Shown one piece after another: positions 4,125 through 5,178 of a stretch of DNA of 64,000 nucleotides (positions are counted from its first letter, which is position 1; the number at the start of each line of letters is the position of its first letter). Made by a program: the position numbers and the translations under genes. This DNA is from a virus, in the IMG/VR virus record IMGVR_UViG_3300020406_000804, positions 1 to 64,000 of that record. One strand, written 5' to 3'. The notes below the pieces were generated by a model. That model was given only the letters and a program-made list of their open reading frames with translations, ran no database searches and was not told where the DNA came from.

Positions 4125-4429
4125 GGGGGTGACCAGGTTTCGACAGGGTAAGGATGGTAGTTCGTGCAAGGCTGTGTGGGTAGGCACAGTAAAAATACCC
4201 AAAAACATAAATGCCAATAATGACATTGAAGTCGAGGATTTTGCGCTTGCCGCATAACCTCGGAGGGATTTTCCAGGTTCCCTCTTAATCCAACACCTGG
4301 ATTTGTTAATTTATATTTCAATATATTTGCTACTTAATGGCTGTCTAGGGCCAGATCTAGACTAACCTTGTGAACGACGAATTATTTGAGATGTTCTGGA
4401 CGCGGGTTCGACTCCCGCCACCTCCACCA
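4125..4429 (+). ncRNA. ssrA: tmRNA (transfer-messenger RNA)
   Basis: 5' GGGGGTGACCAGGTTTCGAC; acceptor stem GGGGGTG/CACCTCC with G3:U70; T-arm GCGGG-TTCGACT-CCCGC; encoded ACCA end; tag frame 4213-4257 reads ANNDIEVEDFALAA*. Confidence 0.96.
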
Positions 4430-4443
4430 ACTTTTCTTATTTT
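4410..4443 (+). repeat. tmRNA 3'-end direct repeat, copy 1 (native)
   Basis: GACTCCCGCCACCTCCACCAACTTTTCTTATTTT. Confidence 0.9.
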
Positions 4444-4460
4444 GGAGACTACTTATTATT

Positions 4461-4826
4461 ATGAAACTTATAATGGAAAATTGGAAACGTTATTTAAGTG
4501 AGCAAGTTTGCACAAACCCAAATAGTTGTTCGATTTCTATTGAACCAACTTCAAATAAAGAAATGCAGGAAGAAATTGTTAGAAGTTTGAACACCGCGAT
4601 GGAGCGTCTAAAAACACCAAATCGAGAATTATATAATTTTAACTTAGGACAAGCAACTGGCGGAGTTCCACCTGAAATGTTAAATAGTTTAGGAATCACC
4701 CTGCCAGATTTGCCAAAATCTCCAAGAGAAATAGAAGCGTGGCTCGAACAAATACAGACTGAACCTTCTTTGTATAACATTTCATGTACTTCTACTGGCT
4801 GCCTTGCAGAAAAAAAGACCCAATAG
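4461..4826 (+). CDS. cassette protein 1 with MKLIMENWK leader (121 aa)
   Basis: ATG 4461 follows CTACTTA; the track's extension to 4386 overlaps the tmRNA. The TAG stop overlaps repeat copy 2. Confidence 0.8.
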   Translation: MKLIMENWKRYLSEQVCTNPNSCSISIEPTSNKEMQEEIVRSLNTAMERLKTPNRELYNFNLGQATGGVPPEMLNSLGITLPDLPKSPREIEAWLEQIQTEPSLYNISCTSTGCLAEKKTQ

Positions 4827-4860
4827 ACTCCCGCCACCTCCACCAACTTTTTCTTATTTT
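4826..4860 (+). repeat. tmRNA 3'-end direct repeat, copy 2
   Basis: First 26 bp identical to copy 1, then one extra T, then CTTATTTT. Confidence 0.9.
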
Positions 4861-4891
4861 CAGGACTACTTATATTTAAGGAGACTTTATA

Positions 4892-5152
4892 ATGAAACTT
4901 ATAATGGAAAACTGGAAAAAATTTGTAACAGAAGAAGAGGAAGAAAACTATCAAGCAGCAAGCGAGGCAGCTGCCGACCCGGTAGTGCATGCAAATGCGA
5001 TGCTTCATGAGGCCGTAGAGGCCATGTATGAGCTAGATGACGCAATCGACAATGGTCTTACCATGGCACGCGATGCAGAAGTTACGCTAGCAGACCTAGA
5101 ATCTAAAATAGTCCAACTGAACCAGTTGCTTCAAGGACTTAAACAGGCTTAA
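4892..5152 (+). CDS. cassette protein 2 with MKLIMENWK leader (acidic, coiled-coil-like)
   Basis: AAGGAG RBS; MKLIMENWKKFVTEEEEE. The TAA stop overlaps repeat copy 3. Confidence 0.8.
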   Translation: MKLIMENWKKFVTEEEEENYQAASEAAADPVVHANAMLHEAVEAMYELDDAIDNGLTMARDAEVTLADLESKIVQLNQLLQGLKQA

Positions 5153-5178
5153 CTCCCACCACCTCCGCCACTTTTCTT
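5152..5178 (+). repeat. tmRNA 3'-end direct repeat, copy 3 (degenerate)
   Basis: ACTCCCACCACCTCCGCCACTTTTCTT: 2 substitutions and a 1-nt deletion relative to copy 1. Confidence 0.8.

Follow-up and report, generated by a model that had tools for sequence, protein, structure and literature searches.

Integrons hold single-gene cassettes in variable arrays, with an intI gene, attC hairpins and a common promoter, Pc. The tandem islands that tyrosine integrases place at tRNA and transfer-messenger RNA (tmRNA) genes come with direct repeats of the 3' end of the gene that start in the T-loop, the gene being restored by the incoming copy while the old end is displaced. In T4-type phages (coliphages and vibriophages), gene shuffling is mediated by promoter-early stem-loop (PeSL) modules, in which a sigma-70-like early promoter is combined with a stem-loop terminator (Arbiol et al., 2010, PMC2839356; Comeau et al., 2014, PMC4122927). 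The internal proteins of T4 share only a capsid-targeting propeptide of 10-19 residues that is removed by the gp21 protease, and proteases of the gp21 family cut after a glutamyl residue following a short motif (PMC3012670, PMC9026906). Here, we describe a phage locus that resembles each of these systems in part. It lies in a window of 64,000 nucleotides, the first 64 kb of the 90,461-bp IMG/VR virus record IMGVR_UViG_3300020406_000804 (G000 in the following; CheckV completeness 46%), where small genes with a common leader and unrelated payloads are stacked behind copies of the 3' end of a phage tmRNA. Comparison with the sequences of relatives suggests that this is a hyperplastic locus, in which homologous recombination at two places, the tmRNA-end block and the leader, would exchange promoter-plus-leader cassettes, a reading to which we give a probability of about 0.58. 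Ten further viral records (G001-G010) and several metagenome contigs were mapped at the locus; among the loci named below, L203 lies in G000, L142 in G007, and L131, L204 and L087 in G001.

Anatomy of the Locus

The tmRNA gene of the window is full length, and its last 20 bases together with ACTTTT make up a block of 26 nt. Three copies of this block form one family, with a spacing of 416 and 325 nt. An earlier interpretation of this DNA, the sequence-only reading, had noticed that the tmRNA 3' end occurs three times and delimits units of 416 and ~325 bp, and the copies are indeed found at 4410, 4826, and 5151. The features of the locus are as follows (source of each assignment in brackets):

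4125..4429, + strand: phage tmRNA, full length, tag peptide ANNDIEVEDFALAA (ARAGORN; Rfam RF00023, 125.4 bits with a gathering score of 47, model positions 1-374)
4410..4435, + strand: repeat copy 1 ("tm3"), running from the T-loop to the CCA of the native tmRNA 3' end and on through ACTTTT (repeat and pattern search)
4436..4460, + strand: T-rich spacer and promoter-like GACTACTTAT box at 4447-4456, with CTACTTA at 4449-4455 (sequence)
4461..4826, + strand: gene of cassette 1 (open reading frame 1, ORF1), 121 aa, with the 14-residue leader MKLIMENWKRYLSE (4461-4502) and an orphan payload (ORF list)
4826..4851, + strand: repeat copy 2, orphan, with 100% identity to copy 1 (repeat search)
4852..4891, + strand: T-rich spacer, GACTACTTAT box (4864-4873) and Shine-Dalgarno sequence AAGGAG (4878-4883) (sequence)
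4892..5152, + strand: gene of cassette 2 (ORF2), 86 aa, with the leader MKLIMENWKKFVTE (4892-4933) and an acidic orphan payload (ORF list)
5151..5176, + strand: repeat copy 3, 77% identical, the displaced old tmRNA 3' end still on its original downstream flank (repeat search; alignment to empty sites)
5177..5205, + strand: sigma-70-type promoter, TTGACA-17 nt-TATAAT, 12 of 12 positions, with TG, predicted to drive iscU (promoter scan)
5212..5601, + strand: iscU (NifU_N), the first gene past the array (Pfam PF01592, 2e-54)

A 20-mer of the block, searched with up to three mismatches, matched three times forward and not at all in reverse in the whole 90,461-bp record, and its backwards control gave no match. 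In composition the block is rich in C and poor in G, the GC content of the genome being ~35%. The empty sites of two relatives (L161 and L012) are the counterpart of copy 3 and its flank in an alignment, which indicates that the cassettes entered within the tmRNA 3' end, so that the incoming copy completes the tmRNA and the old end is displaced. The distal repeat had been described before as the most decayed (77% versus 100% identity), and this is explained by copy 3 being the displaced old tmRNA end.

Each unit contains a single ORF, and the unit plan that had been read from the sequence holds: a GACTACTTAT box, a gene beginning with MKLIMENWK, an unrelated payload, and a stop codon that touches the next repeat. 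The G of the TAG stop of ORF1 is the first base of copy 2, while the TAA of ORF2 overlaps copy 3. This fit is general. Of 30 stop codons upstream of a block, 13 share exactly one base with it, 17 end within -1 to +2 of its first base, and 29 either end at most 12 nt before the block or overlap one or two of its bases. Genome compaction may be the cause of this close fit, and the block may also have a function at the end of each message. The two units are ~80% identical over the module and the leader; an alignment of ORF1 with ORF2 is limited to residues 1-24 (BLASTP). Neither payload belongs to a Pfam or PHROG family. Among 5.8 billion proteins, the ORF1 payload has, besides itself, one relative with 85% identity, while a relative of ORF2 (P0004, 83% identical) is present in four metagenome contigs with other neighbors. 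The ESM Atlas held no usable match for either payload; the structural model of ORF1 reached a pLDDT (predicted model confidence) of 0.47 and the best feature of ORF2 a score of 0.82, which is under the lead threshold.

The motif of the box, CTAYTTA, is found 27 times on the coding (+) strand and nine times on the - strand of the record. Intergenic sequence makes up 5.8% of the record and contains 13 of the 27 coding-strand copies (odds ratio 15, p = 9e-10). These intergenic boxes stand 4-58 nt before gene starts, several of which belong to structural genes, and in the native setting the box follows the tmRNA CCA by 19-20 nt. Judged from this distribution, it is plausible that the box is a phage promoter, presumably a late one. 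The only strong sigma-70 match between 3500 and 6500 is the old flank at 5177-5205, and no terminator-like hairpin was found on the + strand of the same interval.

The Conserved Leader

The leader has the consensus M-K-L-I-M-E-N-W-[RK]-[KR]-[FY]-[LVI]-x-E, and both cassette genes of the window open with ATGAAACTTATAATGGAAAA (MKLIMENWK). A 20-nt stretch coding for it is found exactly at 4461 and 4892 only, with one further match at 8196 that has three mismatches (chance expectation 0.06). In its exact form of 26 nt the leader is present in 28 viral loci, in every one of which it begins an ORF. Six ORF1 peptide patterns, one of which covers the leader, matched 262 viral stretches, and a metagenome scan with six peptide patterns, again with one that covers the leader, matched 512; in the viral scan the confirmed ORF1 matches were confined to the first 15-55 residues, except in L113, and the ORF2 matches to at most the first 30. 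Synonymous codon variants (AAG/AAA, CTT/CTC/CTG, AAA/AGA/CGN) leave the leader peptide unchanged, and the Shine-Dalgarno sequence, where present, serves the first ATG. Complete relatives have two to eight leader genes each, mostly within a few kb of the tmRNA locus.

A pattern search of the loci returned 83 ORFs, and with one false case (L146) removed there are 82 distinct leader proteins, which fall into at least 65 payload clusters, 54 of them singletons. Pfam families are present in at most nine of the 73 leader proteins scanned, namely GDSL lipase, amidase, FtsK gamma, C5 methylase, HAD, tRNA-ligase phosphodiesterase, and APP1. The motif [LIVM]12-x-E14 is found in 67 of the 82 proteins, the background in the payloads being 1.2% per position, and conservation does not extend past residue 14; leader positions 1-8 are conserved partly because they were used for collecting the set. 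The phage has T4-type head genes, encoding a portal protein (PF07230, 6.8e-81), a gp21-type prohead protease (PF03420, 3.3e-30) and a gp23-type capsid protein (PF07068, 4.3e-10). The leader precedes at least 65 payload groups that are unrelated, it is conserved up to [LIVM]-x-E and not beyond, and the phage has a gp21-type head protease; by analogy with the T4 internal proteins, it is therefore probably a capsid-targeting propeptide. The gp21-type protease itself (L203 3926-4528, corresponding to G000 83926-84528) begins with MKLLREYYE, which resembles MKLIMENWK.

Some further gene starts were observed around the head genes. The head protease gene of L091 and L102 is immediately preceded by a leader gene. 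A third recurring start, of the type MK..L..IIKEE-L-E, belongs to very basic proteins with runs of Lys and Arg (window 6822-8190); it is also found on a 135-aa protein right after the head protease (L203 4528-4932, G000 84528-84932) and on some repeat-bounded cassettes in L204 and L142 (MKITKKLLIEMIEQE, MKVTKQYLRKLIKEE). This start may be another head-targeting tag.

Variable Arrays in Related Phages

The sequence-only reading had proposed to look in relatives for arrays of variable number and content and for an empty site, and both exist. Copies of the block were counted per record at up to three mismatches in 18 positions, for which a backwards control pattern gave 0 or 1. By this count G003, G005, and G010 have one copy each, G004 and G008 two in the locus, G002 two and further decayed ones, the window three, G006 four, G007 four and one that is split, and G001 seven, with all copies of a record on one strand and in one locus. 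In G010 a leader gene follows the tmRNA, and a second repeat copy was not found in this record. The empty sites are those of L012, from a 185.6-kb record rated 100% complete, and of L161; in both the tmRNA is directly followed by the TTGACA/TATAAT promoter and then by iscA.

The same cassette can have different neighbors. L142 and L131 have in common a lipoprotein-like cassette (87% identity) and a 105-aa cassette (91%), between which L131 contains 1,110 extra bp with two cassettes and with repeat copies at both ends of the extra stretch. The ORF2 relative P0004 is found in L210, L211, L212, and L213 with a different downstream neighbor in each and, where the upstream side is visible (L210, L211), in two upstream contexts. 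These four contigs are identical through the repeat and ACTTTTC and diverge immediately after it, so that the cassette junction falls within the 26-28 bp block.

The array is not bound to the tmRNA. G001, which is rated 100% complete, has seven copies and no tmRNA; as one of its copies keeps the flank that follows the tmRNA in G007 (100% over 37 nt), the tmRNA body has been lost there. In G002 the array comes after iscU, the stop codon of which overlaps a decayed copy, while in G006 repeat copies separate iscU and iscA; the auxiliary genes iscU and iscA thus join in the same shuffling. Along the arrays the number of mismatches does not rise with distance (1, 3, 1, 1, 0, 3, 0 in G001 and 0, 0, 1, 1 in G006). 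The repeat/cassette system is neither anchored to the tmRNA nor polarised, and in these two respects the earlier picture of a polarised capture system anchored at the tmRNA has to be given up. Many leader genes without any repeat also abut each other (G002, G008, L210, L213) or sit elsewhere.

Several observations at the locus stand by themselves. The order of the isc genes varies, being iscU-iscA in the window (5212-5899), iscA-iscU in L012 and iscU-repeat-iscA in G006; L161, L205, and L208 were also compared. Two of the G001 copies are split or changed (CCTCCAAATCCAC), one of them holding an insert with a hairpin of a 12-bp stem. In metagenome contigs, at 85% likeness, joints were seen that skip 422 or 429 nt between modules, that go back 449 nt, or that join the ends of iscU or iscA to a leader; they were not counted as circles or deletions, being single contigs from mixed communities, mostly with sides of <40 nt, that may represent the arrangements of relatives. 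Upstream of the tmRNA, a tiny Cys-rich ORF ends a few bases before the gene (window 4025-4120, 31 aa, 10 Cys in the last 15 residues). An ORF at this position is also found in L012 (3290-3355), L085 (4210-4277), and L142 (12-107), with only the Cys richness retained and with an extra gene before the tmRNA in L085 and L142. A second family with a shared head and a variable tail, starting with MPKFYRQNKKRIDPRYFLNE, lies directly upstream of the tmRNA in six relatives and is absent from the window; two members stand in tandem in G006. Members are located at L085 4279-4794, L205 1270-1569 and 1610-2044, L207 (reverse) 1224-1703, L208 (reverse) 1669-2193, L209 1226-1636, and L214 1678-2226.

Proposed Exchange by Homologous Recombination

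It is directly established how the units are built, that the arrays vary and have junctions in the block, that the records searched lack integrases, and that complete relatives encode a RecA/UvsX-type recombinase; from here we infer a homology-driven recombination. A RecA-family protein of the UvsX type, 374-386 aa long, is encoded in all four complete relatives (E 1e-35 to 1e-39); G000 is a fragment without the part of the genome where relatives encode this gene. The longest perfect identity between units is the block (26-28 bp), and the second longest is the leader coding sequence (~26 nt). Being the longest runs of perfect identity, block and leader are the expected crossover points in a phage that has such a recombinase.

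We propose that small cassette genes are exchanged between co-infecting relatives by the homologous recombination of the phage itself. A cassette would consist of a T-rich spacer, a CTAYTTA box, sometimes a Shine-Dalgarno sequence, the 14-residue leader, and a unique payload with its stop pressed on the next repeat. The unit of exchange would be the payload, lying between conserved sequence on both sides, that is block, spacer, box, and leader at the left and the next block at the right, so that both block and leader could serve as crossover points. Unequal crossovers would change the number of cassettes and exchanges between genomes their content, and cassettes could be added, deleted, and reordered, possibly through excised circles. 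The 26-28 bp block would have originated as the tmRNA 3' end together with the few bases that follow it; the first downstream gene probably had a promoter that overlapped the tmRNA end, and the two would have been copied together. Where a cassette enters beside the tmRNA, the incoming block would rebuild the tmRNA 3' end and push the old end downstream, where it would persist as copy 3 of the window. Finally, the leader would be removed after Glu14 by the gp21-type head protease, and the payloads would be packaged and injected. Of the two routes that the sequence-only reading had offered, the better fit is the homology-driven shuffling for which it had cited the T-even IPI locus; a trans-acting recombinase seems unlikely.

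Several points weigh against this proposal. The evidence is all comparative and comes from contigs, a recombination event not having been directly observed, and an identity of 26-28 bp is short for homologous recombination. A fixed junction in one conserved block would also be expected from a site-specific system, and the module, which has no stem-loop, is not a PeSL by composition. Simple hitch-hiking would predict a looser fit than the one-base overlap of stop and block seen in 13 of 30 cases. Orphan copies show very little decay, mostly 0-1 mismatch in 19 positions even in the tmRNA-less G001, and this conservation could mean selection for a function; however, copies were collected at up to four mismatches, and some that have decayed completely are known, as in G002. 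In addition, the CTAYTTA box is often just 4-5 nt away from the ATG, an awkward distance for a promoter of the same gene, and the capsid-targeting role of the leader is proposed by analogy.

Alternative Explanations

One alternative, which we consider unlikely, is site-specific capture. The block would then be an att-like (attachment-like) site for a recombinase acting in trans, supplied by the host, a co-infecting element or an unrecognised phage protein, and the cassettes would be minimal integrative elements added serially, as in an integron or in islands that lack an integrase and are mobilised in trans. Direct repeats of a tmRNA 3' end that start in the T-loop are the classic footprint of tyrosine integrases, and they count in favor of this explanation, as do the restoration of the gene and displacement of the old end upon insertion beside the tmRNA and the junctions of shared cassettes, which fall inside one highly conserved block of 26 nt. 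However, no tyrosine recombinase (PF00589) was matched in any of 11 records, four of them rated 100% complete, with a positive control that matched in 14 of 14 genomes, and no serine recombinase (PF00239) in any of five records, where the control also matched. With one ORF per unit and no PF00589 match in these 11 records, the earlier description of integrase-free single-gene cassettes is borne out. Of the T-stem, the orphan copies retain just the 3' half, and they are free of dyad symmetry, inverted repeats, hairpins, and terminator-like sites at their junctions, while the right ends of the cassettes are unique coding sequence with no space for arm sites. Arrays after iscU or around iscA and in a genome without tmRNA, the unpolarised decay, and the many cassettes that are joined leader-to-stop without a block are likewise difficult to reconcile with capture. 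Moreover, the cassettes carry phage-type boxes and a phage-wide leader, which argues that they are phage-born. Should the block nevertheless be a true recombination site for a trans-acting factor, of which the chance is small, the locus would represent a phage-borne acquisition of cassettes without an integrase gene, by which genes are loaded behind a promoter and a capsid-targeting tag for late expression, packing, and injection.

No better placed is the explanation that the block is kept for a role in RNA or transcription, as the upstream part of a promoter, a C-rich terminator or processing signal, or a stop context, with the array consisting of duplicated regulatory modules. Such a role is compatible with exchange by homologous recombination and does not exclude it. 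As the box stands 19-20 nt past the tmRNA CCA, any promoter at this position must overlap the tmRNA end with its upstream part, and the C-rich, G-poor composition of the block, the stops that abut it (17 of 30 within -1 to +2), and its conservation in the tmRNA-less G001 would all suit a regulatory element. Conversely, only ~5 of the 28 exact-leader loci have a block copy or a remnant of one just upstream, and decayed copies are tolerated in G002, in G004, and at copy 3 of the window. RNA structure does not go beyond chance either, since the folds of the orphan modules were no better than those of shuffled sequences (z -0.44, -0.39, and 0.09), and a pairing of CTCCA with TGGAG (z -1.98) was rejected, the GGAG side not being preserved in the other copies.

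Slightly less probable again is homing by a nuclease. A free-standing endonuclease would cut naive genomes at the tmRNA 3' end or near it, the repair of the break would copy the insert together with a replacement tmRNA end, and the later arrays would be by-products. L214 encodes a 183-aa endonuclease, P0005 (2583-3134), between a tmRNA with a variant 3' end (T-arm) and a copy of the block that is displaced but perfect. The enzyme has matches to phrog_3322 (1e-24), the HNH family phrog_3118 (9e-10), and EndoVII families as well, and is likely a free-standing homing endonuclease. Remnants of an insert of the L214 type are found just before the block in G007 (AAGTGGAGTAAATTTGT) and, more diverged, in G001 (AAGTGGAGTAAGTTTT). 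Against this, a search of G000, G001, G002, G006, and G007 without positive control found no P0005 relative (0 of 5), and homing accounts for the first position only and not for internal cassettes or for arrays away from the tmRNA. A nuclease-driven route may have made some of the insertions at the first position.

The weakest alternative, simple tandem duplication with divergence or an assembly artefact at the repeat, would agree with the ~80% identity of the units over module and leader and with a break of Logan contigs at 4400-4423, but it has already been largely refuted and is highly improbable, as the payloads are unlike past residue 24, the same cassettes occur separately in other contigs, and the stretch 4400-6000 is contiguous in the runs of two studies, both of which may be sources. 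This stretch lies on a single Logan contig with 0 differences in the marine runs X1 (2014) and X2 (2020), which come from different studies and may both be sources of the G000 record, and near-identical pieces of the ORF1 and ORF2 payloads are found in two 2025 runs of other studies (X4, X6), in which uncovered parts of the stretch carry no weight as evidence. The intact stretch in X1 and X2 and the payload pieces in X4 and X6 make an artefact unlikely; the contigs break where the tmRNA ends of many other organisms pile up (depth 334-497 versus ~12). Of the outcomes that the sequence-only reading had named as speaking against it, neither the same two genes in all relatives nor payloads homologous over their full length were observed, the similarity of the two proteins stopping at residue 24, and an assembly artefact is unlikely.

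Source Phage and Other Genes

G000 derives from a T4-like myovirus, with a match to a baseplate wedge protein and with PhoH, and the metagenome runs that contain the stretch of the window are marine or seawater. Among cultured phages, blastn of the locus and of the module with the leader against 50,697 phage records gave only iscU matches and noise. iscU as a query for relatives gave 597 matches, mostly unrelated; of the 80 loci retained, L012 alone has this kind of tmRNA beside iscU, and L072 has a tmRNA that is unrelated. Searches of an open-access library, which are no proof of absence, gave no description of an arrangement in which tmRNA-end repeats bound cassettes and no paper with the leader strings, and the pelagimyophage paper PMC7029224 has 0 mentions of tmRNA.

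Elsewhere in the phage, the window encodes a 1064-aa ORF (22-3216) with an N-terminal EKTDGQN that resembles ligase motif I; its residues 446-481 weakly match a cytidylyltransferase-like sequence, and it was assigned to no family. There are two protease genes, one of the ClpP family (window 11755-12393; PF00574, 2.6e-30) far from the head genes, the other the gp21-type prohead protease (G000 83926-84528) in the head module. A gene resembling that of ribosomal protein S21 lies between the head protease and capsid genes (G000 84963-85199, L203 4963-5199; phrog_21469, 5e-7).

Significance and Comparison With Known Systems

If the proposed exchange is true, module-mediated shuffling, which is known from few cultured T4-type phages, would extend to abundant uncultured marine myoviruses, and the module would be built from a piece of a functional RNA gene, a tmRNA fragment being reused as gene punctuation. 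The leader provides a simple search handle for such genes. If it is a capsid-targeting tag, it would mark a large catalogue of proteins that marine phages inject with their DNA, which would be candidates for anti-defence and host take-over functions, and it could be used as a packaging tag for the engineering of this phage group, like the T4 tag.

Like an integron, the locus has single-gene cassettes in variable arrays. It differs in having no intI, no attC hairpins, and no common Pc promoter, as a promoter-like CTAYTTA box comes with every unit (and with unit 2 a Shine-Dalgarno sequence as well), and in being unpolarised, so that the label integron-like in the sequence-only reading does not apply. 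With the islands of tyrosine integrases it has in common that direct repeats of a tmRNA 3' end flank the insert, the gene being restored and its old end displaced distally. Here, however, the units measure 325-416 bp, there is no integrase, the target is a phage tmRNA, and repeats are also found away from the tmRNA and in a genome without it.

The likeness to the PeSL system lies in short repeated intergenic modules that flank small, mostly ORFan genes in T4-like hyperplastic regions, with insertions, deletions, and replacements between relatives that end in the modules and with no dedicated recombinase. In contrast to a PeSL, the module described here combines a fragment of a tmRNA 3' end with a T-rich spacer and a CTAYTTA box, has no stem-loop, and is followed by a conserved coding leader. 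To the internal protein genes of T-even phages the locus is similar in the T4-type head with its gp21-family protease, in the unrelated small proteins that have a common short N-terminus, a block ending in x-X-Glu, and in the variability of the genes. The leader here is of another sequence and 14 residues long, and in these uncultured marine phages it precedes at least 65 payload clusters including some enzymes. In the T-even phages the shared leader is thought to serve exchange, as is proposed for block and leader together in the phages described here.

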